The translations under genes and the position numbers were made by a program. A DNA stretch of 64,000 bases from an uncultured delta proteobacterium. GTDB taxonomy: Bacteria; Desulfobacterota; Binatia; Binatales; Binataceae. Shown piece after piece: positions 4,871 to 57,907 of this stretch. Location of the stretch: NCBI GenBank assembly GCA_963724395.1, contig CAVRUK010000005.1, positions 1,001,261 to 1,065,260 of the forward strand, written 5' to 3'. The first letter of the stretch is position 1. Each line of letters opens with the position of its first letter. Under the pieces are notes generated by a model that searched no databases, was not told where the DNA came from, and saw only the letters and a program-made list of their open reading frames with translations.

Positions 4871-5054
4871 TGGGGGGTGAACTTTTCAGCCTGACGCTCG
4901 CGCGCCTGACGTGCTAACAATCAGGTATGGACATCAGTCAGGTACTACTCCTCATTCACAGTGCGCCCGCAAGGAGAAAACACTACAAATTTGACGGAAC
5001 GAAGCTACGCCTAGTGGGTCACCCGTCCCGAACCACCACAGGTAGTGTACATCG
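4871..5054 (+). repeat. Interspersed ~200-bp repeat family, copy A
   Basis: Shares the 5' module 'gggggtgaacttttcagcctgac' and the 3' module 'tttgacggaacgaagctac...' with copies at 34168, 47247 and 57714 (rc). Confidence 0.6.
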
Positions 5055-5143
5055 CCACTTTTCGGCCAATTGAACATTCGCAATTCGCCGCCACTTCGGT
5101 CGCAAAATGAATCATTCCCGCCAGCCTTGCGCCCATAATCTGC

Positions 5144-7618
5144 GTGATCCAGTCTGAGCGACTACCAATGGCGGTGCATCCAGGCGAAGGTTCCCGGCGA
5201 CGTTTTTATCGTTCGCCGCGCGCGCGCAGACGCGCGGTGGTCGGGCTCGTGGTCGCGTTCGTCTTTGTCGTCGTGATGACGGGGCTGTTCTATCAAGCGA
5301 CACAAAGCGGGCTCGCGCCGGAGTCGGGCGTCGTCAAACTTGCGGGGCTGACGGCTCCCGTCAAGGTGATTCGCGACGCGGTCGGCGTACCGCATATCTA
5401 CGCGCAGAACCGGCTCGACCTCGCGCGGGCGCTGGGCTACACGCAGGCGCAGGATCGATTGTTCCAGCTCGAGATGCGCCGGCGGTTGGCTGAGGGGCGC
5501 CTCGCCGAGGTGTTTGGCGCCGACTTGGTTGAGAGCGACTACGTTTACCGGCTGTTCGATCCTGAAAAATTTGCGCACGACAGCGTCGCGGCCTATCCGC
5601 CCGAGATGCGCGCGCAAGTGGATGCGTTCGTCGGCGGGATCAACGCTTATATCGATGCGCATCAGGATAGCCTCGAGCCGGCGTTTCGGCTGGTCGGTAT
5701 CAAGCCGGCGCATTTCACGGCCGAAGACCTCGAGGCGGGCGCGCTGACGATTGCGGTGCTGCTCGGCTACAACGCAACCGAAGAGTCGTTGTACATGAAC
5801 CTCGCGCCGAAGATGGCGCCGAGCGAAATCGCCGCGCTGATGCCGGTGTATCCGACGCTGCCGCTCGAGCCCCCGCCGCGCACGACGACTGCGGCGTTCG
5901 GCGGAACGACGCTGGCGTTTCACCTTGCGCCAGGCTTCGCGCGCCTCGGGCATCTCGGCATGCCCGCGAGCAACAACTGGGTGATCGACGGCACCAAATC
6001 GATGTCGGGCAAACCGATGCTCGCGAGCGATCCGCATCTGCCGCAATCGATTCCGTCGATTTGGTACGAGGCGGTACTCGTGACCCCGGACGGCTTCACC
6101 TCGGGCGCGCTGGCTGCCGGTTCGCCTGCGGTTGCGATCGGCACCAACGGGCATGTGGCGTGGGGCGTGACGAGCGTATGCGCGGATGTGATGGATCTCA
6201 GCCTCGAGCATCTGTCGGCCGACAGCGAACGCAAAAGTTACGAGTTCCAGGGAAAATGGCTCCCGCTGGAGCGGCGCGACGTGACGATTCATGTCAGGGA
6301 CGCGGCCGACGTGACGCGAACGATCCTGTCGACGCGGCACGGTCCGATCGTCAGCGACGTGCTCGCGCGCGAGGACAATCCGCTGAGCGGCGTGAAGGTA
6401 CGCGGGAATTACGCCCTGTCGATGCGCTTTGCCGGGCTGACGCCCGGGCCGTCCGCCGCCTCGGGATTCGGCTCGGCCACTGCACGCACGGGAAAGGAGT
6501 TGGTCGAAGCCTATCGCACCTTCACGACGACGCCGCTCAATCTGGTTTGGGGCGATGACTCTGGAAATATCGGCTGGAAAATCGTCGGCGCAATTCCGAA
6601 TCGCATCGGCTTCGACGGCAAGTATCCGACCGCGGGATTCACCGGGAATTTCGAATGGAACGGGATGATCCCGTTCGACAGTCTGCCGCATAGCGAGAAT
6701 CCAGCGGCGCATTTTATCGTCACTGCCAACAATCGGCTGGCCGACGTTTCATGGAATGGAAGCTGGGTGGCGCCGTGGCGCTTCGATCGTATCTCGAACC
6801 TGCTGCGCGCGCGCGACAAGATGACGATCGATGATTTCAAATCGATTCAGCGCGATCGCGTATCGATCTTCGCGCTGAAGCTGCGCGACGCGCTCGTGCA
6901 GGCCGGCGACGGCGACGACGACGATCTGCGATGGGCGCTCGGGGAACTCCGCGGATGGGACGGCGCGATGACGGCGAACAGCAGGCCGGCGGCGATTGTC
7001 GCGGCAACCGAAGTGACGCTGGCGCGCCGCGTGTTCAAGCCTCTGCTGGGCGAGGACTACAAATCGTTCATGCTGCTCGAGGACGGGGGCGCGTATCCGG
7101 CGAGCGAAGATATGATCGTGCGGCCCGCTAGTACGCTGTGGCCGGGAGGCGCCGACGCCGAGAGTGCGACGTTGCGCGCGGGCTTGAAGGATTCGCTCGC
7201 GCTGCTCGCGACTCGGCTCGGCAACGATCGCGACAAGTGGCGATGGGGCTCGCTGACGACGATCGAATTTGCGCATCCGCTGGGCGCAGGCGGCGGCCTG
7301 CTCGGATGGTACTTCAACCGCGGGCCGTTCCCAACCGAAGGCGGACGGCATACGGTGAACAATTCCTGGTTTGATTTAGGCGACGAACCGGCGCAGTTCA
7401 AAGTCACACAGATTTCGTCGTACCGTTTCATCACCGACCTCGGCGACCCCGAAGGCGCGCTCGGAATGAATCACAGCGGCGAATCGGACCATCCGGCGTC
7501 ACGCCACTACGACGACATGATCGGCCCCTGGAGCCGCGGCGAGTATCACCCGCTCGATCCGAGTTACACGCGCGTGCAGTCGTCAGCCGAGGCTGAATTG
7601 GATCTGGAGCCGCGCTAG
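5144..7618 (+). CDS. Penicillin acylase / AHL-acylase family Ntn-hydrolase (periplasmic)
   Basis: 824 aa; N-terminal membrane anchor; 'MPASNNWVIDG' matches the beta-subunit N-terminal Ser nucleophile motif (S-N-N-W) of penicillin G acylase family proteins. Confidence 0.8.
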   Translation: MIQSERLPMAVHPGEGSRRRFYRSPRARRRAVVGLVVAFVFVVVMTGLFYQATQSGLAPESGVVKLAGLTAPVKVIRDAVGVPHIYAQNRLDLARALGYTQAQDRLFQLEMRRRLAEGRLAEVFGADLVESDYVYRLFDPEKFAHDSVAAYPPEMRAQVDAFVGGINAYIDAHQDSLEPAFRLVGIKPAHFTAEDLEAGALTIAVLLGYNATEESLYMNLAPKMAPSEIAALMPVYPTLPLEPPPRTTTAAFGGTTLAFHLAPGFARLGHLGMPASNNWVIDGTKSMSGKPMLASDPHLPQSIPSIWYEAVLVTPDGFTSGALAAGSPAVAIGTNGHVAWGVTSVCADVMDLSLEHLSADSERKSYEFQGKWLPLERRDVTIHVRDAADVTRTILSTRHGPIVSDVLAREDNPLSGVKVRGNYALSMRFAGLTPGPSAASGFGSATARTGKELVEAYRTFTTTPLNLVWGDDSGNIGWKIVGAIPNRIGFDGKYPTAGFTGNFEWNGMIPFDSLPHSENPAAHFIVTANNRLADVSWNGSWVAPWRFDRISNLLRARDKMTIDDFKSIQRDRVSIFALKLRDALVQAGDGDDDDLRWALGELRGWDGAMTANSRPAAIVAATEVTLARRVFKPLLGEDYKSFMLLEDGGAYPASEDMIVRPASTLWPGGADAESATLRAGLKDSLALLATRLGNDRDKWRWGSLTTIEFAHPLGAGGGLLGWYFNRGPFPTEGGRHTVNNSWFDLGDEPAQFKVTQISSYRFITDLGDPEGALGMNHSGESDHPASRHYDDMIGPWSRGEYHPLDPSYTRVQSSAEAELDLEPR

Positions 7619-7706
7619 CTATGTCTTTCAGCTTGCCTCGCACGCACGACTGATCAAAGTTGCAATATGAAACGAACGCCTCGTTTCGAATAATTGTCAC
7701 AAGGAG

Positions 7707-8432
7707 TTGCGGATGATCGACTTATATTTCTGGCCAACGCCCAACGGCTACAAGATTACCTGGATGCTCGAGGAGGTCGGCCTCAAGTACAACGTGATCC
7801 CGGTCAATATCGGCGCGGGCGATCAGTTCAAGCCCGAGTTTCTGAAAATCAGCCCGAACAATCGCATGCCCGCGATGACCGATCCCGACGGTCCCGGCGG
7901 AAAACCGATCTCGATTTTCGAGTCGGGCGCGATCCTGATGTACCTGGCCGAGAAGACCGGCAAGCTGATGCCGTCCGACACGCGCGGCAAGTACAACGTG
8001 ATTCAGTGGCTGATGTTCCAGATGTCGAGCGTCGGCCCGATGCTCGGCCAGGCGCATCACTTTCGCCGCTACGCGCCCGAGAAGATCGAGTACGCGATCA
8101 ACCGCTATACCAATGAGGCCAAGCGCATCTACGGCGTGATCGACAAGCGCCTCGGCGAAGCGAAATACCTGGCGGGAGAGTATTCGATCGCCGATATCGC
8201 GACTTACCCGTGGCTGGTGCCGCATTCGATGCAAGGACAGAACCTCGAAGATTTTCCGAATCTGAAAAAATGGTACGACGAACTGCGCGCGCGGCCGGCG
8301 ACCCAGCGCGGCTTCGCAGTGATGAGCGAGATCGTCGAGAAGATGCGCACGGCGGCGCAAGCGAATCAGCCGGCGCACGATCCGAAGACGTGGGAGATAC
8401 TGTTCGGGAAGAAGCAGTTCGAGAAGCGGTAA
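7707..8432 (+). CDS. Nu-class glutathione S-transferase, YfcG-like (disulfide-bond reductase type)
   Basis: 'MIDLYFWPTPNGYKITWMLEE...ISPNNRMPA...FESGAILMYLAEKTG' matches E. coli YfcG closely, from memory. Confidence 0.8.
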   Translation: MRMIDLYFWPTPNGYKITWMLEEVGLKYNVIPVNIGAGDQFKPEFLKISPNNRMPAMTDPDGPGGKPISIFESGAILMYLAEKTGKLMPSDTRGKYNVIQWLMFQMSSVGPMLGQAHHFRRYAPEKIEYAINRYTNEAKRIYGVIDKRLGEAKYLAGEYSIADIATYPWLVPHSMQGQNLEDFPNLKKWYDELRARPATQRGFAVMSEIVEKMRTAAQANQPAHDPKTWEILFGKKQFEKR

Positions 8433-8459
8433 GAGAATTCGTCCCAGTTGGAAACTTTG

Positions 8460-9380
8460 TCAGGCCGAGCGTTGTGAACCATCCAGTAGTCGCAGCAGCG
8501 TGTACACGATTTCGACGGTGGGCACCTTCAGGCCGTGGCGGCTGGCCGCGCGGACTACGGCGCCGCTGAGGGCTTCGTATTCGAGCGATTTGCCGCGTTC
8601 CAGGTCCTGCTGGGTCGAGGTCTTCAGCGCGCGCAGGTTTTTGTGCGAGTGCGCGATGTACGCGTCGATGCGGTCGTCGGAGATGTGCGCGCCCTCGGCG
8701 CGCGCGACGGTGACAATCTCCCGCATCATCGTGCGCAGGAGCTCCAGGCCTTCGGGGTCGTCGATAATCTCGCCGACGCGCCGGCGCGTCAGCGTCGTCA
8801 CGGTGTTGAGAGCGCCATTCCAGATGAGCTTGTCCCATCGCGCGGTCATGATGTCGGTTGAGACCTGGCCGAGAATCCCGGCGCGTCGAAACACTTCGGC
8901 GATTGTCTTGACTCGCTCCGTCTCGCGGCCGTCGAGTTCGCCGAAGTCGATTTGGCCGGTGCTCAGATGAACAATTTTGCCGGGCGCGACCATCTCGACT
9001 CCGACGCGCGCGTTGCCGCCCATCACAGCGTCGCGGCCGAATATCGCAGCGAGCTTAGACTCGTTCTCGACGCCGTTCTGAAGCGTGAGAATCGCGCCGC
9101 CCGGCCGAAGGCATCCCGAGATAGCCTGCGCGGCGGCGTCGGTGTCGTAGGCCTTCACGCAGAACAGGATCAGATCATACGGCGCGAAGTCGTGGGGCGT
9201 ATCGGTAGCCGTGACCTCGATTCGCAGATCGCCCCGGATGCTGGTGATGTCGAGGCCACGCTCGCGGATCGCGCGCAGATTTTCCCCGCGCGCGCACAAG
9301 ACGACGTCCTCGCCGGCGGCCCGCATCCGTGCGCCGAAGTAAGCTCCGACCGCGCCCGCACCCATCACGAGAATTTTCAT
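8460..9380 (-). CDS. panE: 2-dehydropantoate 2-reductase (ketopantoate reductase)
   Basis: N-terminal 'MKILVMGAGAVGAYFGARM' Rossmann fold; ApbA/PanE-like length and C-terminal domain. Confidence 0.7.
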   Translation of the reverse strand: MKILVMGAGAVGAYFGARMRAAGEDVVLCARGENLRAIRERGLDITSIRGDLRIEVTATDTPHDFAPYDLILFCVKAYDTDAAAQAISGCLRPGGAILTLQNGVENESKLAAIFGRDAVMGGNARVGVEMVAPGKIVHLSTGQIDFGELDGRETERVKTIAEVFRRAGILGQVSTDIMTARWDKLIWNGALNTVTTLTRRRVGEIIDDPEGLELLRTMMREIVTVARAEGAHISDDRIDAYIAHSHKNLRALKTSTQQDLERGKSLEYEALSGAVVRAASRHGLKVPTVEIVYTLLRLLDGSQRSA

Positions 9381-9421
9381 TTTCTCACTTTTTTACTTTT
9401 TCACTTTTTTACTTTTCACTG
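9381..9421. repeat. AT-rich degenerate tandem repeat ('cacttttttact' x3) in the divergent panE / cobS-like intergenic region
   Basis: Read directly: 'tttctcacttttttactttttcacttttttacttttcact'; conspicuous in a 65% GC background. Confidence 0.5.
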
Positions 9422-9469
9422 CGCCTATCGTAGCGCCGCCGCGATCTGTTGTAATCAACCTCGGTCACG

Positions 9470-10246
9470 ATGGAATCGGCGAGCGAAACGAGTCTTCCAG
9501 GTGCGCGCGAACTGTTGTTCGACGCCGTGCTGGCGGTGGCGACGCTGACGCTGTGGCCGATCCTCGACGAAAGATCGCAGGGCACCGCCGCGCAGCGCGC
9601 GCGCGCGATGGTCTATTTTCCGATTGTTGGTTTCGTCCTCGGAGTAATTCTCGCGGTTGCCGATCGAAGCGCCGGCCTGGTAGCGGGACCAGTCACAAGC
9701 TCGTTCGTCGTGCTGACAATCGGAGGAGCGCTCTCGCTGGGGCTGGCGAATCGCGGAGTGGCGGACACGGCCGAGGTGCTGCGGCGGGGCACGCGGCCGG
9801 CCTCGACCGGACTGGCGCGAATCGGACCGGTGGGAGCGGGCGCATCGCTGGCCGCGTTCGCGTTCGAGGTCTGGTGCCTGTCGCGAATCACCGACGACGC
9901 GGGACGCGCGGGCGCGCTGGTGATGGCGATGACGCTGTCGCGATGGGCGATCGTTCCAATCGGCTACGGGCTGAAACCGCTGGAGCATTGGGGGCTCGGC
10001 ATCCCGTACGAAGGCGGCATTTCGTTTCGCGAGTTCGCCGTCTCGAGCGTCGTGGCGCTGGGACTCACGATGGGGCTGTATCAGAACGTCGGGCTGGCGG
10101 TGATCGTCGCGTTGGCGCTGACTATTCTCGCGATGCGGCTGGTGCTGAGCCGCCGGATGGGCGGCGCATCGGGCTACATGCTGGCGGGCGGATGCGCGGT
10201 TACCGAGGTCGTCACGTTTGCGGTGCTGGCAGCGCTTCGGGTTTAG
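9470..10246 (+). CDS. Polytopic membrane protein, CobS-like (adenosylcobinamide-GDP ribazoletransferase family)
   Basis: 258 aa, highly hydrophobic; 'FPIVGFVLGV' and 'GVADTAE' resemble the CobS 'FPLIGLLLG' and 'LDGLADT' motifs; no other cob genes nearby, so the function is uncertain. Confidence 0.45.
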   Translation: MESASETSLPGARELLFDAVLAVATLTLWPILDERSQGTAAQRARAMVYFPIVGFVLGVILAVADRSAGLVAGPVTSSFVVLTIGGALSLGLANRGVADTAEVLRRGTRPASTGLARIGPVGAGASLAAFAFEVWCLSRITDDAGRAGALVMAMTLSRWAIVPIGYGLKPLEHWGLGIPYEGGISFREFAVSSVVALGLTMGLYQNVGLAVIVALALTILAMRLVLSRRMGGASGYMLAGGCAVTEVVTFAVLAALRV

Positions 10247-10277
10247 CAGCTACCGATGGCAGCGAGCGGTCCAAAAT

Positions 10278-10516
10278 CCTAACCTCTCCTTGTCCGAGGA
10301 GAGGTCGGCGCGAGCCGAAGGTGAGCGACGGGAGAGGTGCAACGCTCGCCGTCGTAGTAGTGCGTGTTGTGCTGCTGTCGTGCAGCGGAGTCAGTGTCTG
10401 TAAATTGTGGTTCGAGGAGTAAACGTCGGTGCGGTGTCTGGCGTTGCACCTCACCCGGCGACACCGCTTTTTCAAGCGGCTTTCGCCGACCTCTCCTCGG
10501 ACAAGGAGAGGTTAGG
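10278..10516. repeat. Palindromic element: perfect 33-bp inverted repeats (10278-10310 and 10484-10516), each itself a hairpin, flanking a 173-bp core
   Basis: 'cctaacctctccttgtccgaggagaggtcggcg' is the exact reverse complement of 'cgccgacctctcctcggacaaggagaggttagg'; lies between convergent cobS-like and coaE. Confidence 0.6.
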
Positions 10517-10524
10517 ACAGAGTT

Positions 10525-11130: not shown

Positions 11131-11140
11131 TCCGATATCC

Positions 11141-21023: not shown

Positions 21024-21094
21024 CGTTTCTGGTTCCCCTTCCTGCACTTCCGGTTCCCCTTCCCGCGGCGGGAAGGGGTTAGGGGTTAGGTTCC
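21010..21094. repeat. REP-like palindromic element (copy 1) carrying the core 'cggttccccttccc...gggaaggggttaggggttaggttcc'
   Basis: The 44-bp core is nearly identical to 30861..30904; the flanking 'aacctaacacctaac' makes an extended hairpin; downstream of the M48 gene. Confidence 0.6.
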
Positions 21095-22594: not shown

Positions 22595-22951
22595 GGGGGC
22601 GAACTGGATTCGACGAAGACAACATGGCCATGGTCGCACGCCGGGTGCTGTCGACCCGTAAAACTGGCAGACTGCGAAATTTACCCGCAGACAATAACGG
22701 TTACGCTCTGGCGGCCTAAGGGCCGCTAGCGTCCCGCCGCTGCTCGCCCATGGCAGCGGGTCGGGGCGTCATTTAGTGGGCTAGGGAACCGCAGTTCACC
22801 GGCTGGGCGGCGTCCCGAAATTTCAGCCGGCTGGCGTCAGCAAAGCCCGTCTGTGGGCGTTTCGGGCGCGAGCTAAAATTCGCAGACTAAGCGTGTAGTG
22901 GCCGTCGCCGGAAGGCCTTCGGACGGGGGTTCAATTCCCCCCGCCTCCACC
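22595..22951 (+). ncRNA. ssrA: tmRNA (SsrA), 357 nt, tag reading frame GCA GAC AAT AAC GGT TAC GCT CTG GCG GCC TAA (ADNNGYALAA)
   Basis: 5' 'GGGGGCGAACTGGATTCGACG' and 3' 'GGACGGGGGTTCAATTCCCCCCGCCTCCACCA' form an acceptor stem with a G3:U pair; the T-arm, the tag ORF ending ...YALAA-stop and the divergent smpB all fit. Confidence 0.85.
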
Positions 22952-23003
22952 AATTTCGAGTGCCTGACTGACGAAGCTGTTGTCGATCCGGCCATCAATC
23001 AAG

Positions 23004-30844: not shown

Positions 30845-30860
30845 TGCACCCTAAACAATC

Positions 30861-30904
30861 CGGTCCCCCTTCCCACTATGGGAAGGGGTTAGGGGTTAGG
30901 TTCC
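30861..30904. repeat. REP-like palindromic element (copy 2)
   Basis: 'cggtcccccttcccactatgggaaggggttaggggttaggttcc' matches 21051..21094; sits between convergent gene ends. Confidence 0.6.
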
Positions 30905-31034: not shown

Positions 31035-32764
31035 CTAGTGATGCGGGCCGCCTCCTCCATGCGGTGCTTCCGGATGTCCCCCGCCGCCCCCACCGCCATG
31101 CGGTGCTGCAGCAGGATGTCCGCCTCCACCGCCCGCGCCACCACCGCCGCCGCCGCGATGCTCGAATGCCTGCTCCTGCTGAGCATGCTGGCGCTCAAAG
31201 GATTGCATTTGCTGCGCATGCTGACGCTGCATGTTCTGCTGCTGCGCGAAATGCTGGCGTTGAGCCTCCTGTTGCTCGGCCGCATGCTGACGCGCGAGCG
31301 CCTGCGTTTCATTCTGCTGGCGGCGCAGGAGTTCCGCTGACTGCTGCTCGTGACGATCCTCGACTTGCCGCCAATTTGCCCCATTGTCCTCTGGAGCGGC
31401 CTTCCTGGGCTGCTCCGCTTCCCGCACATGCTCCTGCAGATGCTGCCGCTCGAAATTCTCGGTCTCCGCTTCATGCTTTTGCTGAAGCTGCCGTAATTGC
31501 TCCGCGCGATTGCGCTCGGACTCCTGCTGCTGCTGCGCGCGATTGCGCTCGAGCTCCTGCATCTCGACGTTATGCTGGCGCTGGAGCGCCTCTTCTTGCA
31601 CGCCATGTTCGCGCGCTACCGACTCGCGCATCGCGCCAGTCCAATCGGGATGATGCTCCATCGCCCAGGTGGGATTCTTTTGCGCCCACCAGTGGACGTC
31701 GTGCCAGACATGCTTGTCGTCGTAGTCGCCCTTCCATTCGGGATGATGCTGATCGGCCCACGCCGCATCATGATTGTGCCACCAGGTGTCGTTGTGCCAG
31801 ACGTGTTTGTCGTCGAAGTCACCCCACCAGTTGGGATGATTCTCGCGCACCCAGTCAGGCTTGGTCGCCCACCAATAACTTGCCGGACGCCATATTCTGC
31901 GATCGTCGAACGCGCCCCACCAATCGGGATGATTCTCGCGCACCCAGTCAGGCCGGTTCTGCCACCACCATCCCGCGGGCCGCCAAACGTGCCCGTCGTC
32001 GAAGTCGCCCCACCAGTCGGGATGATTCTGGCGGCACCAGTCGGGGTGAAACTGCCACCACCATCCCGCCGGGCGCCAGTAGTGGTGATCGTCGAAGTCT
32101 CCCCACCAATCCGGGTGATGCTCGCGAACCCAATCGGGATGATACTGGTACCACCACGGCGCCGCGTACCAGACGCCTTCGTAGTAGTCGCCCCACCAAT
32201 CCGGATGATGCGCGATTACCCACTCGGGCTGGAGCTGCCACCACCACGGCGCGGGATACCACAAATCGTCCCAATCGTCGCCCCACCATTCCGGGTGATT
32301 CTGCAATACCCAGTCGCGGTGGCGATGCCACCACCATCCCGCCGGATACCAGACGCCATTGTCAGGCGCGCCCCACCATTCCGGATGGTACTGCTGAACC
32401 CATTGCGGCTGATATTGATACCACCAACTCGCGGGATACCACGCTCCCTGGTAGTAATCGCCCCACCATTCGGGATGATGTAGTCGCACCCACGCGGGCT
32501 GCGAATCCCACCACCACCACGCGGGATGCCAGATGTGATCCTCGTCGAAATCGCCCCACCATTCAGGGTGATGCACCTTGACCCAGTCGGGCTGATGCTC
32601 CCACCACCAGGCGGCTTCGCGAAAGGTATGCCCGTTGTCGTAATCCCCCCAAGCAGGAACAGGCGGCAAGGGCGAAGGCCAAGGCCGGTACTGCGCGAAC
32701 GCGGGCGTAGCCAGCAGAAGGAGAACCGTACTCGCCGCCAGCAAACCCTTGATTCTGGTCATCG
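31035..32764 (-). CDS. Secreted tryptophan-rich tandem-repeat protein: signal peptide, ~11.5 x 30-aa 'HHP(D/E)WWGDFDDxHxWRPAGWWWQxxPDWVRE' repeats, Q/E-rich coiled-coil region, Gly/His-rich C-terminal tail
   Basis: Translation of the minus-strand ORF; start chosen at 'MTRIKGLLAASTVLLLLATPAFAQ'; repeat periodicity of 90 bp is visible at the DNA level from ~31560 to 32650. Confidence 0.7.
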
Positions 32765-33182
32765 ACGCACCCCAGTTAATCGCAAGTAAATCGCATCGCA
32801 AGCCAATAAACTTCGCCAAATCACACTTAATATATGATACGTATCGCCGCAAATAGTCGTTTACAGACAAAACCGCTGCCGCTCATTTAGTCATCACGAC
32901 GAAGCAAGCACCGCGAGCGCGGCAATCTCTCAGTTTCAATTGCGGGCTCTTCCCCTCTCCCTGCAAGGGAGAGGATGAAGGTGAGGGTCCGATTACAGCG
33001 CGCTATTCTGCGCGCGATTCAAGATTCTGCCTCTTCTCCGAACCCGTATCCGGAGGTTATGCAAAGTTCCCCCTCCGCTCGACAAGGGGATCTTTCACTT
33101 GACACCAGAGAGCGATTTGCCAATCTCGCTCCATTCGTCCGATGGCCCGGGCTACTGAGCGCATCTTTCGGACGTTGACGAG

Positions 33183-34167: not shown

Positions 34168-34373
34168 AGGGATGAACTTTTCGGCCTTACCCTCGCGCGC
34201 TTCCCGTGTTACCCATACAACATGGACAAACCTCATCACGGTCCGCCCCCCTCGACCCTCCCGCCGACCTGCTCGACCATCGGGCGACCGGGTTGCGCGC
34301 AGAATCATTTTTTGACGGAACGAAGCTACCGATAGTGGTAGACCCCTCCCAAACCCACAACTAATGGTATGAA
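34168..34373 (+). repeat. Interspersed ~200-bp repeat family, copy B (most diverged)
   Basis: 'gagggatgaacttttcggcc...tttgacggaacgaagctaccgatagtggt...aatggtatg'. Confidence 0.55.
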
Positions 34374-34430
34374 TTTGCTTTTTCGGCTCATTTCAATCGT
34401 CCAGAATTGCGCCATTCCTTCCTCATTTGA

Positions 34431-36828
<2,398 letters not shown>

Positions 36829-47178: not shown

Positions 47179-47246
47179 GTGTGCGCCATCGCCGCGATGT
47201 CATCCTGACCGAGGCTACCGGTTCCGAGTCGCCGGGTCGTCACCCT

Positions 47247-47450
47247 GAGGGGGATGAACTATTCAGCCTGACCCCGGCGGATTTTCTGTGCTACCACTAC
47301 AGTATGGTCAAACGTCAGGATGCCCTCCTCTATACTCGCCCCACGCGCCCGCGATTGGGCGAGGCCACCTCCCGGTGAAAACTAATTTTGACGGAACGAA
47401 GCTACCGATGGTGGTGTGGCCGTCCCAGAACCACAACATATGGTATAAGT
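47247..47450 (+). repeat. Interspersed ~200-bp repeat family, copy C
   Basis: 'gggggatgaactattcagcctgaccccggcgg...tttgacggaacgaagctaccgatggtggt...ccacaacatatggtat'. Confidence 0.6.
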
Positions 47451-47463
47451 CACTCCTTTGGGC

Positions 47464-49488
47464 ATGATCCAGCACAACCATTTGCGCAACTCTCGGGCAC
47501 TGGTTTACAAGTTTTCGCTGATAATTGCGTTCCTCACTTTGACTTCGGCAATTTCACCGCCACCCGCCTCCGCCCAATTGCCACCGCTGATTCCGCGCGA
47601 CGTTCTGCTTGGCAATCCCGAGCGCGACAATCCGCATATCGCGCCCGACGGCAAACGCCTGGCATGGCTGGCGCCCGATGGGCACGGAATTCTGCAGGTG
47701 TGGGTGCAGACCATCGGGAGTCACGACGCGCGCGCCGTCACCGCCGACAAGAGCCGTGGAATTCACTCCTACCTGTGGGCGTTCGATTCGAAAACGATCC
47801 TCTACATGCAGGACGCCGCCGGCGACGAAAACTTCCACGTCTTCGGGGTCGATCTCGACTCGCTCAACGTGTGCGATCTGAACCCGTGGAATGGCGTGCG
47901 CGCTGAATTCGTCGCGGCGAGTCCGAAATTTCCCGAACGGGCGCTGGTTGCGCTCAATCTGCGCGATCGCAAACTGATGGACGTCTATCGAATCGATCTG
48001 CGCAACGGCGCCGTCGAACTCGATACTAAAAACCCCGGCGACATCGGAGGATGGCTGGCCGATGACGACCTGATCGTGCGCGCGGCCACGGTCACGACGC
48101 CCGACGGCGGCACCGAACTTCGGATTCGCGACCGCGCTGCCGGTCCGTGGCGCACTCTGATGAAGGCTGCAAAGGAGGACCAACTGGCGGCGCTGGACTT
48201 CAGCAAGGACGGACAATCGATCTTTCTCGGCACCTCGATCGGCACGGACACCACGCGCCTGGTGCGCCGTGAGATCGCGTCAGGGAAGGAAACCGATATC
48301 GCGCACAGCAACGATGCGGATCTGAGCGACGCGATGATTCAGCCGACGCGTCACGTCGTGCAGGCAGCGGCGTTCGATCCCGGCCGCCAGCATTGGGTCG
48401 TGATCGATCCGTCGGTTCAGGCCGACTTCGACGCTATCGCGAAAATCGCCGATGGAGATTTCACCGTCGTTGACCGCGACCTCGCCGACCGGACGTGGAT
48501 CGTCGCGTTCTCGAGCGACCGCGCGCCGACGCGCTACTATTCGTGGGATCGCGGATCGAAGAAAGCGACCTTGCTGTTCAGTGTTCAGCCCAAACTCGAC
48601 GATGCCCCGCTCGCCGCGATGAAGCCGGTTGAATTCACCGCCGGCGACGGAATGAAGCTCAACGGCTACCTCACGCTGCCGACCGGCGTGCCCGCAAAAA
48701 ATCTCCCGTTGGTGCTCGTGGTGCACGGCGGACCGTGGGCGCGCGATAGCTGGGGCTTCGATCCCGATACCCAACTACTGGCGAACCGTGGCTACGCTGT
48801 GCTGCAGATAAATTTTCGCGGCTCGACCGGGTTCGGCAAGAAGTATCTGCACGCCGGCGACCGCCAATGGGGCCTCAAGATGCAGGACGACCTCACCGAC
48901 GCCATCAAGTGGGCCGTCGATCAAGGCATCGCCGATCCAAAGCGAGTCGCTATCTTCGGCGGCTCATACGGCGGCTACGCGGCGCTCGCCGGGGCGGCAT
49001 TCACGCCCGACCTCTATCGATGCGCGGTGGACGAATGCGGGCCGTCGAATCTGTTCACGCTGTTGGCGTCGATCCCGCCGTATTGGGAAGTTGCGCGCTC
49101 GATCTTCTCGACCAGGGTCGGGAATTCCGCCGAACCCAGGGACAAGGAGCTGTTGACGGCGGCGTCGCCGTTGTTTTCCGCCGACAAAATAAAAATACCT
49201 ATGTTGATAGGCCAGGGCGCCAACGACCCGCGCGTCGAGCAGGCCGAGGCCGAGCAGATCGTCAATGCGATCGCGAAACATCGCGGGAGCGCGGTTTACG
49301 TTTTGTATACCGACGAGGGCCACGGCTTCGTGCGGCCGGAGAACCGGCTCGACTTTATCGCCCGAGCGGAAAAGTTCCTGGCCGATAACCTGGGCGGGCG
49401 CTACGAGCCGATGAAAGGCGATCGAATTCCCGGCTCGACCGCGAAGGCCCGCGTCGTCGGGAGCGTCGCCGAACCGACATCGCCGTAG
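47464..49488 (+). CDS. S9-family serine peptidase (prolyl oligopeptidase/dipeptidyl-peptidase type), secreted
   Basis: 'GGSYGGY' nucleophile motif, C-terminal 'DEGHGF', N-terminal beta-propeller region, signal peptide. Confidence 0.8.
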
Positions 49489-50512: not shown

Positions 50513-50523
50513 AACACGGTAAC

Positions 50524-51234: not shown

Positions 51235-51261
51235 CCGATCGAAACAAATTGTCCGCGACCA

Positions 51262-51400
51262 TCAAAAATTTTGAGAGGAGCCCGGACCGGGCAAGGATCC
51301 GGTGCATCGTGAATAGAGCCGACACAAATCAACCGCGAGCTGACCGGTCATCCGGAAGTTCCCAAGACGACGAGGGACTTTTGAGATGAGAAACCGAGCT
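51262..51400 (+). promoter_or_regulatory. Conserved ~135-nt leader (copy 1) upstream of the beta-helix gene
   Basis: Near-identical to 52258..52395: 'ggaaggatccgg.gca.c.tga...cgcgagctgaccgg.catccggaagttcccaagac...gagatgagaaa'. Confidence 0.55.
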
Positions 51401-52246
51401 ACGCTCCGTTTTCAGTGGATCCTGCCGACACTGATGATTGTCGCAGGCTTGATGATGCCGGCTCCGGCCTCGGCGCAGACGGCGTGCGCCCCAACCATCA
51501 ACGCGTGCGGATGCACAATCGATGCGCCCGGCTCCTACAAGCTCGGGCTGAATATCGATTCGGCTCAGGGACTCACTCCCGGCGGCGCGTGCATCGAGAT
51601 CGCCTCGAGCTTCGTGATCCTGGACGGCGCGAAGAAAACCATCACCGGGCCTGGTGGCACGAAGCCAACCGGGATTGGAGTCTGGGTTCATCGCAATTTG
51701 CGTTCAGACTTCCTCGGATTCCGTGGCACGGTGATCAGCGGGTTTGACGTCGGCTTGCTCATCCAGGGCAGTCAAATCGTCGCCGACGACGTCACCACGA
51801 ATACCAATGGGACGGCGGGTGTCGAGCTGTACAAGGCCGATTCTGTCGAGCTCACCAATACCACTGCTGAGAACAATCTCAATTACGGAATCTGGCTGAA
51901 GGCAACGTCCTCCAGCGATGTCACAAATTCCAAGACCGAGTCCAACGGCAACATTGGATTGTACGTGGGATGCTCCGATCTCGGGCCGATCAGCGCCGGA
52001 TGCACAGGAGTCGGCGGGTCACCGGGCAACTACATTTTCACGGGAAACATCCAGGCGAACGCCAACTACGGCGTCGCACTCGATATCGGCGCCAGGAACT
52101 CGATCGTGACCAACCAGACGCTGGGAGGAGGCACTCACAATTCGAAGGACGATTTGTTCGACGCGAATTCGAGTTGCGGCAGCAACAAATGGTTCGGCGA
52201 TGACTCGACGGCGACCAACAACCAGGCCGGCGGCTGCATCAAATGA
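51386..52246 (+). CDS. Secreted right-handed parallel beta-helix repeat protein
   Basis: Signal peptide; repeated 'N.NGxxG(I/V)' beta-helix rungs ('NNLNYGIWL', 'SNGNIGLYV', 'ANANYGVALD'). Confidence 0.5.
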   Translation: MRNRATLRFQWILPTLMIVAGLMMPAPASAQTACAPTINACGCTIDAPGSYKLGLNIDSAQGLTPGGACIEIASSFVILDGAKKTITGPGGTKPTGIGVWVHRNLRSDFLGFRGTVISGFDVGLLIQGSQIVADDVTTNTNGTAGVELYKADSVELTNTTAENNLNYGIWLKATSSSDVTNSKTESNGNIGLYVGCSDLGPISAGCTGVGGSPGNYIFTGNIQANANYGVALDIGARNSIVTNQTLGGGTHNSKDDLFDANSSCGSNKWFGDDSTATNNQAGGCIK

Positions 52247-52257
52247 CGAGTCGCGCA

Positions 52258-52395
52258 CGACCATAAAAAAACAGGGAGGAGCACGGACCAGGGAAGGATC
52301 CGGCGCACCATGACACAGCCATTAAATAATCGCGAGCTGACCGGACATCCGGAAGTTCCCAAGACCATGAGGGGCTTTCGAGATGAGAAAATGCA
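52258..52395 (+). promoter_or_regulatory. Conserved ~135-nt leader (copy 2) upstream of the porin gene
   Basis: See 51262..51400. Confidence 0.55.
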
Positions 52396-53852
52396 CTTTG
52401 CCGATCCTGCCGGTTATGCTGGCGGCGATAATTGCCGGGGTGTTTGTTCACGCCCGGCCGGCGCATGCGCAGTCGAGGCTGTCGACCGATCCGAAGGATC
52501 AGGAAATCGAATTGCTGAAGACCGAGGTCAAGCAACTCAAGCAGAGGGTCGATACCTTGGAAGGACTTGACCAGAAAGTGAAAGTGATCGACCGCAAACT
52601 CGAAGTTCAGGAAGAGACCCAGCATCAGAGGTCGCTCGAGATGCCGATCGTTAAGGTAGGCGAGGAAGGATTCTCGCTGTCGTCGCCCAACCACGACTAC
52701 AATATCGATTTCGGCGGAATCATCCAGGGTGACGGCCGCTTCTTCACCAGCGGCGCAGACAAGAACGTCGGCAGCACGTTCTTCCTGAATCGAGTGCGCC
52801 CGATTATCACCGGTTCGGTTGCGCAGTATTACAACTTCAACATCACGCCCGACTTCGGCCAGGGCAAGGTCACGCTGCAAGACGCCTACATCAATATGAC
52901 CTATTGGGATTATGCAAGCCTGAGGGCCGGGAAGTTCAAAGCGCCACTGGATCTCGAGCGCCTACAGTCGGACCGCGATCTGGAATTCAGCGAACGCTCG
53001 GAGATCCAGAATCTGGTCCCGAACCGCGACACTGGCGCCGACCTCCACGGCAGACTTATGGACGGCCGCGTCTTCTATGACGCCGCGTTAATGAATGGAG
53101 TACCTAACAACACTGCCGCGGACACTACCGACCTCGACACCAATGACGGCAAGGATTTCGTCGGCCGCATCTTCACCACACCGTTCGAACTCGGCGAGAA
53201 CAGATGGCTCAAGGGCCTGGGTTTCGGTTTCGCCGGTTCTTATGGCGATGAACGCGGCGCCACGACCTCGACCTACAAGACCTACGGCATGAGTACCTGG
53301 TTCCAGTACAACAAGGGCGTGACCGCGTCGGGGTTGCGCGCGCGAATCGAACCGCAGCTCTACTACTACTGGCGCAGCTTTGGATTGATGGCCGAGTACG
53401 CGCAGGACCAGCACTCGCTGAACCTGTTCACCACTACCGGGAAGGCGCCGTTTACAAAGCTCATCAATCGTACCGACACCTTCACCGACACCGGCTATTT
53501 CGTGCAGGGTTCCTACCTGCTGACCGGCGAAGATGCGTCCTACGGCTGGGTTAAGCCGCATCATCCGTTCGACCCGCGCAATGGATTCTTTGGCGCATGG
53601 GAGTTGGCGGCCAGAATCAGCAACGTCGCCGCGCAGACGCGCCAATTCCAGCTCGGTTTCGCCAATCCGAGCGTGTCCGCGGAAACTGCGACCGAGTGGG
53701 CGGTGGGCGTCAACTGGTACCTGAACTCGAACATCAAGTGGCAGTTCGACTATGCGAACACGTTCTTCGACGGCGGCGCCGGCACGACCTCCGACGTTAA
53801 GGACCGGCCGAACGAAAGCGTCATCGAGTCGCAACTGCAGATCTCGTTCTGA
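52383..53852 (+). CDS. Outer-membrane anion-selective porin, OprO/OprP (phosphate-selective porin O/P) family
   Basis: Signal peptide, N-terminal coiled coil, beta-barrel body ending in C-terminal '...LQISF'; O/P porin-like '[10 protein letters not shown]' region. Confidence 0.65.
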
Positions 53853-53859
53853 GGTGAGA

Positions 53860-54891
53860 ATGTTTGGCCGCAAATTGAAATTGACACACACGCTCGCCGC
53901 CATCACTTTGGCTGCGAGCGTTGCTTTCGGCATTGGCGCCGCGCGCGCGGCCCAGGTCACACTGCTCAACGTGTCGTACGATCCGACCCGCGAACTTTAC
54001 GAAGCTGTCAACGCCCAGTTCGCGAAGGATTGGAAGGCGAAGACGGGCGACGACGTAGCGATCGAGCAGTCGCACGGCGGCTCGGGCAAGCAGGCGCGCG
54101 CTGTTATCGATGGTCTCGAGGCTGACGTGGTGACACTCGGACTCGCGGGCGACATCGATGCGATCGTCGACAAGGCGGGCTTGTTGCCGCCGGACTGGCA
54201 ATCGCGCCTGCCCGACAACAGCTGCCCCTACACTTCGACCATCGTGCTGTTGGTGCGCAAGGGAAATCCGAAGCAGATCCACGACTGGGATGACCTGGTG
54301 AAGCCGGGCATCTCGGTAATCACGTCGAATCCGAAGACCTCGGGCGGTGCGCGATGGAACTTCCTCGCAGCGTGGGGTTACGCGCTGAAGAAGAACGGCG
54401 GCGATGAGGCCAAGGCGGCGGCGTTCGTCGGCGCGCTCTACAAAAACGTGCCGGTGCTCGACTCCGGTGCGCGCGGCTCGACGACTACGTTTGTCGAGCG
54501 CGAAATCGGCGACGTGCTGATCGCATGGGAAAACGACGCGCACATCGCGATCAAGCAATTCGGCGCCGACAAGTTCGAGGTCGTGTATCCGTCGATAAGC
54601 ATCCTCGCAGAACCTCCGGTCGCGTGGGTGGACAAGGTGGATCAGCGTCACGGCACCGCCGCGATCTCGAAGGCATACCTGGAATTTTTGTACACGCCCG
54701 CGGGGCAGGAAATAATCGCGCAAAATTTCTTCCGTCCGCAAGACAAGGCGGTCGCCGCAAAGTATGCGAGCCAATTTCCAAGCTTGCCCCTGCTCACGAT
54801 CGATTCGGATTTTGGCGGATGGAAAAAGGCGCAGCCGAAGTTTTTCGGCGACGGCGGCGTGTTCGACAAGATCTATCAGCCGGGAAGTTAG
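53860..54891 (+). CDS. sbp: Sulfate/thiosulfate ABC transporter periplasmic binding protein
   Basis: '[61 protein letters not shown]' is canonical Sbp/CysP. Confidence 0.8.
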
Positions 54892-54900
54892 CGTCACGCG

Positions 54901-55740
54901 ATGGGAGTTGGAGCGAAAACGAAACGGACCAATGTGCTGCCGGGATTCGGCCTGACGCTGGGCTTCACGCTCGCGTATCTCGGAATCGTTGTGTTGATTC
55001 CGATCTCGACGATCTTCTTCAAGACCTTCACGCTGACGTGGCCTCAGTTCTGGGCCGCCGTCGCAAGTCCGCGAACGGTAGCGGCCTACCGGCTGAGCTT
55101 CGGCGCTTCGATTGCGGGAGCGTCGATCAACTCGGTGTTCGGATTCATCGTGGCGTGGAGCCTGGTCCGCTACGAATTTCCCGGCAAAACGCTGATTGAC
55201 GTGATGGTCGATCTGCCGTTCGCGCTGCCGACTTCGGTGGCGGGAATAACTCTCACCGCGATTTACGCGGGCAACGGATGGATTGGGCGGTACCTCGCGC
55301 CGCTTGGAATAAAGGTCGCGTACGCGCCGCTCGGCGTGGTCGTGGCGCTTACGTTCGTCGGGCTGCCGTTCGTAGTTCGCACGATTCAGCCTGTGCTCGA
55401 GGATCTCGACCAGGAATATGAGGAGGCGGCGGCGACGCTCGGCGCGAGCCGCTTGCAGACGTTCATGCTGGTGATCGCGCCCGCGCTGATTCCCGCGCTG
55501 CTCACAGGATTCGCGCTCGCGTTCGCGCGCGCGCTCGGTGAATATGGCTCGGTCGTATTCATCTCGGGCAACATGCCGATGCATACCGAGGTGGTGCCGC
55601 TGCTGATCATGAGCAAGCTCGAGCAGTTCGATTACGCCGGCGCGACCGCGATCGCGGTGGTGATGCTGACGGCGTCGTTCGCGATTCTGCTCGGCATCAA
55701 CGTGCTGCAGAGGTGGAGCAGTCGCCGCCTGGCGGCCTGA
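54901..55740 (+). CDS. cysT: Sulfate ABC transporter permease CysT
   Basis: Six TM segments with the EAA loop; position after sbp. Confidence 0.8.
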   Translation: MGVGAKTKRTNVLPGFGLTLGFTLAYLGIVVLIPISTIFFKTFTLTWPQFWAAVASPRTVAAYRLSFGASIAGASINSVFGFIVAWSLVRYEFPGKTLIDVMVDLPFALPTSVAGITLTAIYAGNGWIGRYLAPLGIKVAYAPLGVVVALTFVGLPFVVRTIQPVLEDLDQEYEEAAATLGASRLQTFMLVIAPALIPALLTGFALAFARALGEYGSVVFISGNMPMHTEVVPLLIMSKLEQFDYAGATAIAVVMLTASFAILLGINVLQRWSSRRLAA

Positions 55741-55749
55741 CGTTTCGCG

Positions 55750-56634
55750 ATGGCCACTCAGTCGCAAGGCGAACAGAGAAAACCCGGGACCGCCGATCCG
55801 CCGGCGGTCAGAATCGCGCTGATCGCGACGGCTCTGGCGTTCGTCGCGCTGTTCATTTTCATCCCGGTGATCGCGGTCTTCGTCGAGGCGCTGCAGAACG
55901 GTATCGGCGCTTACTTTGCCGCGATTGTCGATCCCGAGGCGCGCGCCGCGATTCGCTTGACGCTGATGACCGCCGCGATCGCGGTGCCGCTGAACGTTAC
56001 TTTCGGAATCGCCGCGTCGTGGGCGATCGCGCGCTTCGATCTTCCCGGCAAGCAATTGCTGCTGACGCTGATCGACATACCGTTCTCGGTCTCGCCGGTC
56101 ATCGCGGGGATGCTGTTCGTGCTGCTGCTCGGCGTACGCGCCCCGATCGGCGGATGGCTCGCGGATCACGGCATCAGGATCATTTTTGCGGAGCCGGGAA
56201 TCGTGCTGGCGACTATCTTCGTCACGTTTCCGCTCGCCGCCCGCGAGCTCATCCCGATCATGCAGGCGGTCGGCAGCGAGGAGGAGGAGGCCGCGATCGT
56301 GCTGGGCGCCGGCGGATGGCAAATGTTCTTCCGGGTGACGATTCCCAACGTCAAGTGGGGCTTGCTGTACGGGATGGTGCTGTGCAACGCGCGCGCGATG
56401 GGCGAGTTCGGCGCGGTGTCGGTGGTCTCGGGGCATATCCGCGGGCATACCAACACGATGCCGCTGTACGTCGAGATTCTGTACAATGACTACCAGTTCG
56501 CGGCCGCGTTTGCGGTCTCGTCGCTGCTCACCCTGCTCGCGATCGCGACGCTCATCGCCAAGTATTACCTGGAGCGGCGCGTGGTGCCGGTCAAGCAGGA
56601 GCAGGACGACATGGCAGTCAAAGTTGCGGCATGA
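55750..56634 (+). CDS. cysW: Sulfate ABC transporter permease CysW
   Basis: Paralogous permease following cysT. Confidence 0.8.
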   Translation: MATQSQGEQRKPGTADPPAVRIALIATALAFVALFIFIPVIAVFVEALQNGIGAYFAAIVDPEARAAIRLTLMTAAIAVPLNVTFGIAASWAIARFDLPGKQLLLTLIDIPFSVSPVIAGMLFVLLLGVRAPIGGWLADHGIRIIFAEPGIVLATIFVTFPLAARELIPIMQAVGSEEEEAAIVLGAGGWQMFFRVTIPNVKWGLLYGMVLCNARAMGEFGAVSVVSGHIRGHTNTMPLYVEILYNDYQFAAAFAVSSLLTLLAIATLIAKYYLERRVVPVKQEQDDMAVKVAA

Positions 56635-56637
56635 GTC

Positions 56638-57708
56638 ATGAGTATCGAACTCAGAAATATCAGCAAGAAGTTCGGCGACTTCGTTGCGGTCGACAATATC
56701 AATCTGCATATCGAAACCGGCGAGCTGGTCGCGCTGCTGGGGCTGTCGGGCTCGGGCAAGACCACGCTGCTCAGGATAATCGCGGGGCTGGAAACGCCCG
56801 ACACCGGCGAGGTGCTGTTTCACGGCGAGGACGCGAGCGACGTCAGCGTTCGCGAGCGCAAGGTTGGTTTCGTATTCCAGCATTACGCGCTGTTTCGCCA
56901 CATGACGGTGTTCGAGAACGTCGCGTTCGGACTGCGCGTGCTGCCGCGGCGGGCGCGACCGGCAGAGGCCGAAGTCGCGCAGCGCGTGCATGAGCTGCTG
57001 AAACTCGTGCAGCTCGACTTTCTTGCCGACCGTTACCCCTCGCAACTCTCCGGTGGGCAGCGCCAGCGCGTGGCGCTTGCACGTACGCTCGCCGTCGAGC
57101 CGAAAGTCCTGCTGCTCGACGAGCCGTTCGGCGCGCTCGACGCGAAGGTGCGGCAGGAACTGCGCCGATGGCTGCGGCGGCTGCATGACGAGATCAAGAT
57201 CACCAGCGTCTTCGTCACGCACGACCAGGAAGAGGCGCTGGAACTCGCCAACCGTATCGTGGTGATGAACCAGGGACGTATCGAGCAGATCGGCTCGGCC
57301 GAGGAAGTCTATCACCATCCCGCCAACGCGTTCGTGTACAACTTCCTGGGCAACGTGAACCTGTTCCACGGCCGAATCGAAAACGGCCGCGTGTTTCTCG
57401 GCGACACCGCCGTCGAGCTCGACAGTACGCACGCCCACGCACATCCCGAGACCGGCAAAGCGGTCCTCTACGTGCGGCCGCATCTGCTGGAAATCGTGCT
57501 GAGGCCCAACGGCAAGCAGACGTTCCCCGCAACTGTGAAGTCGATCAACCCGGCGGGGCCGCAGGTCAAAGTCGAGCTGGTCGCCGAATGGGGCGACATG
57601 GTGCAAGTCGAGATCAGCCACGATCGCTACCAGACTCTGCACTTGGAGACGGGCGCGCACGTGTTCCTGAGACCCAAAGAGCAGAAGCTGTTCGTGTACC
57701 AGATCTAG
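56638..57708 (+). CDS. cysA: Sulfate/thiosulfate ABC transporter ATP-binding protein CysA with a C-terminal TOBE domain
   Basis: Walker A 'GLSGSGKTT', signature '[13 protein letters not shown]', Walker B 'LLLDEP', C-terminal TOBE-like extension. Confidence 0.85.
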
Positions 57709-57713
57709 AGTTC

Positions 57714-57907
57714 ATACCATATGTGGTGGTCCTGGGAGGCGTCGACTACCATCGGTAGCTTCGTTCCGTCAAAAAACTAATTTTCGCCGGAAGCGGTTTC
57801 GTTGTCGCACAATTTCGGGCGAGCTTGGCGAGGTAGGGGTTTGGTTGACCATACCTTATGGATAGCACAGAAAGTCCGCCGTGGTCAGGCTGAAAAGTTC
57901 ATCCCCC
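57714..57907 (-). repeat. Interspersed ~200-bp repeat family, copy D (inverted orientation)
   Basis: Reverse complement reads 'gggggatgaacttttcagcctgaccacggcgg...tttgacggaacgaagctaccgatggtagt...ccaccacatatggtat'. Confidence 0.6.

Follow-up and report, generated by a model that had tools for sequence, protein, structure and literature searches.

Four interspersed repeats in a Candidatus Binatia genome are probably old copies of a miniature inverted-repeat transposable element with a gene-derived interior

Introduction

Bacterial miniature inverted-repeat transposable elements (MITEs), such as the Correia elements of Neisseria, RUP, Nezha and ERIC, are short sequences that encode no transposase, end in inverted repeats, duplicate their target site and are present in many intergenic copies. 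Two other kinds of small intergenic repeat, repetitive extragenic palindromic (REP) elements and palindrome-associated transposable elements (PATEs), depend on Y1/RAYT enzymes, and to our knowledge IS200/605 elements and their derivatives have neither inverted termini nor target duplications. Mobile insertion cassettes (MICs) consist of inverted repeats of the insertion sequence type placed around passenger genes, with no transposase. Here, we describe a repeat family found in a stretch of 64,000 nucleotides (hereafter the window) from an uncultured member of Candidatus Binatia (assembly GCA_963724395.1, contig CAVRUK010000005.1, positions 1,001,261 to 1,065,260 of the forward strand), in which an earlier note, made from the sequence alone, had pointed out four copies of a bipartite repeat of about 200 bp. 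We propose that these four repeats are probably old copies of a MITE specific to Binatia, with a gene-derived interior and moved in trans.

The MITE family is new, but the kind of element is well known. Our search of the literature on Binatota repeats found nothing relevant, and this is the first description of the family in Candidatus Binatia, a widespread and uncultured soil lineage, with its ends, target duplication and origin defined.

Results

The repeats match the inner part of an element with inverted termini

The intact element is 284-302 bp long, carries the terminal inverted repeats GG(C/T)ACTGGTTCAGTTT…AAACTGAACCAGTACC and is accompanied by 8-bp target-site duplications. The bipartite repeat of the earlier note, two conserved modules around a variable middle, is its inner part. 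There is no transposase open reading frame (ORF) in the element, whose only ORF is a remnant of 13-55 codons; since no transposase is encoded, the element must have moved in trans.

Comparison of the flanks among all loci (numbered with the prefix L) identified a single clean pair of orthologous sites with flanks 89-97% identical, one filled (L052) and one empty (L093). The empty site reads …AACT GCTGATGG GGGGCATT…, and the filled site reads …AACT GCTGGCGG / GGCACTGGTTCAGTTT…AAACTGAACCAGTACC / GCTGGCGG CGAGGGCATT…, the slashes marking the ends of the element. In a shorter reading, the ends of the L052 element are GGCACTGGTTCAG…CTGAACCAGTACC, with GCTGGCGG on both sides, followed by CGAGG. This copy has a perfect inverted repeat of 13 bp and the 8-bp target duplication GCTGGCGG.

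A metagenome scan with the pattern CTGGTTCAGTTT-N(250-280)-AAACTGAACCAG returned 23 loci, three of which (L105, L109 and L118) have the interior of this element; about 19 have unrelated interiors with the same ends and duplications of 8-10 bp. In L109, the duplication CGGCATTC flanks the element on both sides. A perfect inverted-repeat pair of 12-13 bp is present in L052, L105, L109 and L118, and an element model of 294 positions was built from the four intact copies. The earlier note had listed a mobile or REP/MITE-like element among its explanations, and the terminal inverted repeats and 8-bp duplications of the well-preserved copies, together with the orthologous empty site, bear this out as a MITE. 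A second candidate, L016 compared with L006, was not a clean empty site, since another small repeat replaces the element there.

The same note had likened the repeats to PATEs derived from IS200/605. An element of this type, or a REP-like one, would be moved by a Y1 (HUH) transposase or a RAYT, and would agree with inner modules that differ at the two sides and are not inverted, as well as with copies that are intergenic and numerous. However, the "distinct, non-inverted ends" on which the comparison was based are those of the inner modules; the real termini are inverted, have the form GGnnnTG and come with 8-bp duplications. Neither a Y1 transposase nor a RAYT was seen, the one ORF linked to the repeats (226 aa, described below) has no match in Pfam, NCBIfam, PHROG or PADLOC, and the hairpins are not supported by covariation above that of shuffles. 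We find this explanation scarcely credible.

Four copies in the window and their relatives in Candidatus Binatia

All four repeats of about 200 bp were confirmed where the earlier note had placed them, three on the plus strand and one on the minus strand. They have in common an 18-mer, TTGACGGAACGAAGCTAC, which occurs exactly four times in the window without mismatch (0.03 expected from shuffles), and a 5' motif, GGATGAACTTTTCAGCCTGAC, with four window matches at up to two mismatches (0.00 expected). In the alignment of the window copies, two conserved blocks flank a variable middle, and chance similarity, which the note had named as what would undo its claim, does not account for them. The features of the four copies are as follows.

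Copy 1, 4869..5115, plus strand: match of the full element model (nhmmer), model positions 27-290 (match span 4869-5114)
Copy 1, inner features, plus strand: 5' module from 4871; mini-ORF ATG 4927-4929; 18-mer 4991-5008
Copy 1, 5104-5115: decayed 3' terminal-repeat remnant AAAATGAATCAT, 9/12 match to the 3' inverted repeat
Copy 1, neighbors: prfB-like gene upstream (stop 4854); penicillin-amidase gene downstream, co-oriented
Copy 2, 34169..34416, plus strand: model positions 32-268
Copy 2, inner features, plus strand: mini-ORF ATG 34222-34224; 18-mer 34312-34329
Copy 2, neighbor: pobA-like monooxygenase gene downstream (ATG 34455), co-oriented
Copy 3, 47250..47465, plus strand: model positions 31-239
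Copy 3, inner features, plus strand: mini-ORF ATG 47304-47306; 18-mer 47388-47405
Copy 3, about 47211-47227: possible decayed 5' terminus GGCTACCGGTTCCGAGT, by eye against L009
Copy 3, neighbors: N-acyl-D-amino-acid deacylase gene upstream (stop 47178); S9 peptidase gene downstream (ATG 47464), co-oriented
Copy 4, 57710..57908, minus strand: model positions 29-224
Copy 4, inner features, minus strand: mini-ORF ATG 57852-57850; 18-mer 57772-57755
Copy 4, reaching to about 57932: subterminal 5' variant CGTGAATCTGCGG, from the alignment to L030 and L118

With the full-length element model, the homology extends beyond the 3' ends first given for the copies; in the family consensus, conservation continues for about 20 nt past that point and then, more weakly, for another 50 nt or so. 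A profile hidden Markov model made from 66 copies found no fifth copy in the window at E<10, and the same search recovered the known four. The 3' end of copy 4 is 2-6 nt from the stop codon (57708) of cysA, which closes a plus-strand operon for a sulfate ABC transporter. Four relatives (L093-L096) lack this copy, and their synteny with the window breaks off at the cysA stop codon; in L124, the corresponding deacylase–peptidase junction is without copy 3.

The note had called for a search elsewhere to count copies, and those in the window are not the only ones. An exact scan for the 18-mer, using one genome per species, found at least 91 stretches, nearly all of them in metagenome-assembled genomes (MAGs) of Candidatus Binatia/Binataceae/Binatus; among the 18-mer matches listed, several share a single genome, with at least 12 in one MAG. 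Two matches (L041 and L057) belong to other phyla, and there the similarity is confined to the 18-mer region. Both modules are present in 76 of 96 copies, spaced 108-147 nt apart. Multiple dispersed copies, four in the window and at least 91 loci in Binatia genomes, are what is expected of a MITE. The prediction of hundreds of copies per genome found no support: about 700 kb of Binatia DNA around other copies has only about two more, and about 45 kb obtained for unrelated reasons has none. Tens of copies per genome is the better guess, with the window being unusually dense.

A second small repeat family has a REP-like look, with a hairpin, CCCCTTCCC-NNNN-GGGAAGGGG, followed by TTAGGGGTTAGGTTCC. 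It is found in the window at 21049-21094 and 30859-30904, is nested in the core of the element in L022, L024, L038, L059, L075 and L087, and adjoins L006, L092 and L122. In L122 it flanks a small gene of 111 aa with no Pfam match.

The interior of the element is homologous to the two ends of a host gene

At five loci (L040, L058, L091, L092 and L120), an ORF of 216-230 aa lies between the same two modules. The modules are about 0.7 kb apart in L040, L058 and L091, where the conserved ATG of the 5' module serves as the start codon of the ORF; its stop codon in L040 and L058 is the TGA inside TTTTGACGG. The gene loci match model positions 24-148 and 121-279 of 294, which is all of the element but the inverted repeats. 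The 5' part of the interior is homologous to the upstream region of the gene and roughly its first 13 codons, and the 3' part to roughly its last 20 codons and about 100 nt downstream. The variable core of about 60 nt, as the earlier note had described it, is not unrelated filler; it is a diverged and indel-rich remnant of the ORF ends.

The homologues of this gene are "hypothetical proteins" of 216-230 aa in Binatia, with a mean mutual identity of 72%. The parent protein of 226 aa has the N-terminal motif ALSPRQLAARRANAxKSTGPRTxEGK (P0001-P0389; e.g. L092 6001-6681). In a profile search, it proved to be a member of a superfamily of 26,887 clusters (at 50% identity) at E≤1e-3, or 9,289 at E≤1e-10, for which Pfam has no model; ten of its distant relatives have no Pfam domain. 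The AlphaFold2 model of the protein is all-helical (predicted local distance difference test score, pLDDT, 63), with no fold match in the PDB. The analysis brings to attention a parent gene that belongs to a very large protein superfamily without annotation.

The gene occupies a syntenic locus in L040, L058 and L092 and a different but fixed context in L120 and L121. In L120, its stop codon is about 35 nt before the 3' module, which means that the module is untranslated there. The possibility of an RF2-like +1 frameshift at TTT TGA C, where the full-length gene ends, was also considered, and was ruled out by this L120 paralogue, which stops about 35 nt upstream of the module. In L092, a cobalamin riboswitch (RF00174, 50.8 bits) is located at 6836-6911, between the 3' module of the full-length gene and a gene with a TonB_C domain.

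The repeats could also be read as a family of small-protein genes, in which the mini-ORF from the conserved ATG encodes a peptide of 25-55 aa related to the N-terminus of the 226-aa protein. The start codon of the mini-ORF is ATG in 57 of 66 copies and GTG in 7 of 66, and the opening stretch of about 13 codons is similar to MDNRQDAPHSPDS in the full protein. The 18-mer is read through as FDGTKLP, in one frame, in 38 of 66 copies (22 expected), a hydrophobic codon follows CTA CCN in 85 of 88, and the consensus forms a single open frame (DELFSL…MDNRQDA…FDGTKLPMVV) in which some variable sites resemble third codon positions. Yet neither the length of the ORF nor its C-terminal sequence is conserved, and all three frames occur (in 38, 18 and 10 copies). 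The FDGTKLP frame has no upstream start codon in many copies, and in copy 4 it is preceded by a stop codon at 3 nt. The block ACCACAACATATGGTAT is conserved as nucleotides across different frames, and the 3' module of L120 is not translated. Coding modules are ruled out as a general explanation by the frame differences, the frequently missing start codons and the nucleotides conserved across frames, and we judge the small-protein explanation very unlikely.

The inner modules appear to be retained in the direction of neighboring genes

An ortholog of copy 1 is present in L018, where the flanks are 87-93% identical, and orthologs of copy 2 are present in L035, L002 and L007. Across 15 orthologous pairs, the two modules are 77% and 84% identical (the second value being inflated, since the exact 18-mer was required in both orthologs), compared with 58% for the core and 58-62% for the flanks. 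Of the copies in tandem gene contexts, 25 run in the direction of their neighbors and 3 against it (p=2.7e-5), as counted with a crude GC-frame gene caller that missed pobA, for example; another 11 copies lie in divergent contexts and 4 in convergent ones. Because the modules are better conserved than the core and flanks, and the copies are co-oriented with neighboring genes, comparison of the copies suggests a retained, directional function of the inner modules. Young copies have kept the inverted repeats and the duplications; old copies have lost them and kept the interior, as would follow if an inserted element had neutral termini and a non-neutral interior. The orientation also bears on the argument of the earlier note that one inverted copy speaks against a 5'-UTR riboswitch: copy 4 is indeed inverted, but the argument is weak in a family oriented 25 to 3.

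What this function might be is suggested by the region around the start codon. A TGnTA motif lies 12-16 nt before the conserved ATG, its invariant T and A being placed 11-12 nt before the start codon, a geometry that would be compatible with an extended -10 element and a leaderless start, although this is suggestive only. No intrinsic terminator was found in any of the four window copies. We tentatively consider a portable start region, in which the promoter and start codon of the parent gene would be read through into the next gene, to be the most plausible role.

A different, and in our opinion unlikely, possibility is that the MITE has dispersed a control module that was then domesticated, with the 226-aa protein or the cell machinery acting on the near-invariant 18-mer and the 5' motif. 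The interior would then represent the start region and the 3' untranslated region of a gene of the large superfamily, kept in the direction of transcription. If true, this would place dozens of unrelated genes in a single regulon.

The same observations could be explained without mobility, by a cis-regulatory cassette: a promoter or leader shared by a regulon and duplicated with, or ahead of, many genes, the inverted-repeat copies being a secondary capture by an unrelated MITE. In accordance with this, a co-oriented gene lies just downstream in 36 of the 43 copies with both neighbors called, and the tandem contexts are biased 25 to 3. Orthologs of copies 1 and 2 occupy the corresponding sites in other species, and conservation is higher in the modules than in the core. 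Most copies begin and end where the homology to the gene does, at model positions of about 24-33; the ATG is conserved, and the copies contain no internal terminator. However, the downstream genes (penicillin amidase, pobA, S9 peptidase) are mutually unrelated, copy 4 faces into the 3' end of cysA, and close relatives differ in the presence or absence of copies, in one case with inverted repeats and an 8-bp duplication. A consensus promoter was not found in the window copies, and the cassette offers no mechanism that would place about 250 bp at dozens of unrelated sites. We regard the cassette as rather unlikely, and a mobile element as the better account of the repeats.

No conserved RNA structure is found in the element

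The earlier note had also considered a family of small RNA genes and had suggested looking for a conserved RNA structure. A structured non-coding RNA, either such a gene family or a riboswitch-like leader, could be imagined from an imperfect inverted repeat in the 3'-module consensus (CTACCGATGGTGGT … ACCACAACATATGGTA), a hairpin (TCGCCCGAAATCGGGCGA) present in many cores, and compensatory changes in a few copies (L071, L092 and L032). Nevertheless, the element has no Rfam match at the gathering score, and those with E up to 5 are chance matches only. RNAalifold gave no consensus structure for the whole element over 66 copies, and no strong column pairs were found by mutual information in the element alignment. 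A hand-built three-helix model of the 3' module was 76.8% paired, compared with 75.7% in shuffles, and its covariation score of 0.099 (0.089 in shuffles) was reached by 45 of 500 shuffles. With no terminator in the window copies either, neither the structure nor the small RNA genes gained support, and we consider a structured RNA most improbable. At the gathering score, the sole Rfam match in the window is a transfer-messenger RNA (tmRNA): the full-length gene is located at 22595-22952 on the plus strand (RF00023, 188 bits).

The ends of the element point to an IS1/IS6-like transposase

The ends of the element, GGCACTG and GGTACTG, fit GGnnnTG and are accompanied by 8-bp duplications, as read directly from the sequences. 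IS1-family elements end in GGnnnTG and duplicate 8-9 bp (PMC10425158, Table 8, tabulated from ISfinder), and the same ends with an 8-bp duplication are found in IS6/IS26 (PMC6807381). GGnnnTG ends with duplications of 8-9 bp are the signature of IS1/IS6 and not of IS200/605. Since those families have such ends and duplications, the mover would most likely be an IS1/IS6-like DDE transposase.

One candidate is present in locus L028, where an IS1-like element of 3.3 kb (2279-5561), with its own target duplication, has inserted into the 3' module of one copy. The ends of this element, GGTAGTGGGCTGTTTTGAA, resemble those of the MITE without being identical to them. The best match of its transposase is the NCBIfam IS1 family (3e-13; 50 bits, below the curated cutoff of 100), followed by IS6, and its Pfam matches are DDE_Tnp_IS1 and DDE_Tnp_IS240. 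With similar ends and a transposase below the IS1 cutoff, this element is a candidate mobilizer only. As passengers beside the DDE transposase, it carries a gene with a Fic domain and a gene for a trypsin-like peptidase.

In L005, L010, L027, L029 and L060, too, the 3' module is interrupted by ends of the L028 type, at the same ATGG sites. Such ends were found as well in L014, L067 and L078. The IS1-like element or its derivatives have inserted repeatedly, either at the ATGG sites of the 3' module or beside the 5' end of the MITE. This repeated insertion implies that the MITE is a preferred target of the IS1-like element.

The metagenome contigs L097-L119 contain at least one other abundant MITE family, of about 281 bp with the interior GGAATCGGCACGAGG…TTACCAAACTGAACCAG, in addition to several singletons. 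These other MITEs have in common the inverted repeat GGTACTGGTTCAGTTTG and have duplications of 8-10 bp. Because other MITE families carry the same inverted repeat and 8-10-bp duplications, one type of transposase seems to mobilize many unrelated short cargoes in soil and wetland metagenomes.

Genes and other repeats around the window copies

Several further observations concern the surroundings of the copies. Beyond copy 4, the segment 57781-59682 contains two ORFs without a Pfam match, at 57802-58476 (plus strand) and 58492-59610 (minus strand), with atypical G+C content by codon position (0.58-0.67 at third positions, GC3, compared with about 0.8 elsewhere). Since relatives carry a SelR gene at that place, this segment was probably acquired or rearranged. 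A long minus-strand ORF at 53821-57660 was rejected as a shadow ORF (G+C at first positions, GC1, 0.81; GC3 0.64; no Pfam match).

Downstream of copy 3, both the start codon of the S9 peptidase and the positively charged N-terminus of its signal peptide (47464-47540) align weakly to the 3' subterminal part of the element (CACTGGTTTACAAG in the peptidase, CAGGTTGACAAAC in the element). The element-free ortholog in L124 has a shorter and different N-terminus, and the insertion of copy 3 may have supplied a new start to this gene.

The pobA-like ORF downstream of copy 2 (34455-36749) encodes 764 aa, and only residues 4-372 match 4-hydroxybenzoate 3-monooxygenase. The remainder may represent a fused second gene or a lost stop codon; the alignment with L035 has a gap of about 275 nt there.

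On the minus strand, the gene at 31035-32870 encodes a repeat protein of 611 aa rich in Trp and Pro motifs, with about ten tandem repeats of 90-93 nt, 60-74% identical, at 31634-32644. Its orthologs in L002, L007 and L035 have the same internal repeats. Finally, a direct repeat of 63 nt, 90% identical, is present at 51331-51393 and 52328-52390; it ends at the start codons of the adjacent genes 51386-52246 and 52383-53852 and resembles a duplicated 5' leader.

Discussion

Our model suggests that the upstream region of a resident gene, with about its first 13 codons, became joined to its last codons and about 100 nt downstream, thereby forming the interior of an element that would have been moved by an IS1/IS6-like enzyme. 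After insertion, the termini would decay and the inner modules would be retained in the direction of the neighboring genes, the host presumably keeping them for a directional role.

Several results weigh against this model. Across all sequences compared, there is no autonomous insertion sequence with the exact ends GG(C/T)ACTGGTTCAGTTTG. A clean 8-bp duplication is present in only two of the four intact copies, with none in L105 and an ambiguous one in L118. In the window, neither inverted repeat has a match within one mismatch, and none of the four copies has a recognizable pair. Moreover, of the 82 genome copies, only 6 extend to the 5' end of the full model and only 6 to its 3' end. The transposon origin of the bulk of the family, including the inverted repeats that each copy would have had at its origin, is thus extrapolated from a minority. 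The presumed intermediate, a copy of the gene flanked by inverted repeats, was not found at the five gene loci examined, and in three genomes the full-length gene is at a syntenic and apparently stable locus. As for the retained function, the inflated identity of the second module and the crude gene calls reduce the strength of the comparison, and the conservation of the modules could come from gene conversion. No consensus sigma-70 promoter is present in any of the four window copies, which leaves the proposed promoter role without direct support.

The family could serve to test whether MITEs disperse ready-made expression signals. Recognizing it should also improve the annotation of MAGs, where its copies create spurious small ORFs and mark points of rearrangement, such as the one after cysA.

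Among known systems, the Binatia element, at about 290 bp, resembles the Correia, RUP, Nezha and ERIC elements in its size, its lack of a transposase, the terminal inverted repeats and target-site duplications of its well-preserved copies, and its many intergenic copies. Like those elements, it is often near gene starts and may influence neighboring genes. It differs from them in four respects: its interior consists of the two ends and flanks of a host gene that is not a transposase gene, rather than of a deleted transposase gene; its inner modules outlast the termini in most copies; it is strongly biased in orientation (25 to 3); and the family is restricted to Candidatus Binatia. It is a clear case of a MITE interior derived from the start and end regions of a host gene, not from a transposase gene.

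With REP sequences, their composite forms (bacterial interspersed mosaic elements, BIMEs) and PATEs, the element shares multiple intergenic copies, a bias in orientation relative to transcription, and targeting by other insertion sequences. Some insertion sequences target REP sequences, and this resembles the way in which the IS1-like element or its derivatives interrupt the Binatia 3' module in L005, L010, L027, L028, L029 and L060. REP elements and PATEs, unlike the Binatia element, are without inverted termini and duplications. The IS1 and IS6/IS26 families share with it the GGnnnTG ends and duplications of 8 bp (8-10 bp in the sister MITE families), and an IS1-like element with related ends is present in the same genomes; the difference is that the Binatia MITE encodes no transposase. 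MICs, finally, offer a parallel for a passenger-like homology to a gene together with its upstream and downstream regions. The five Binatia gene loci lack the inverted repeats that set a MIC apart; were such repeats to enclose the gene, the unit would be a MIC, from which the Binatia MITE would derive by internal deletion.

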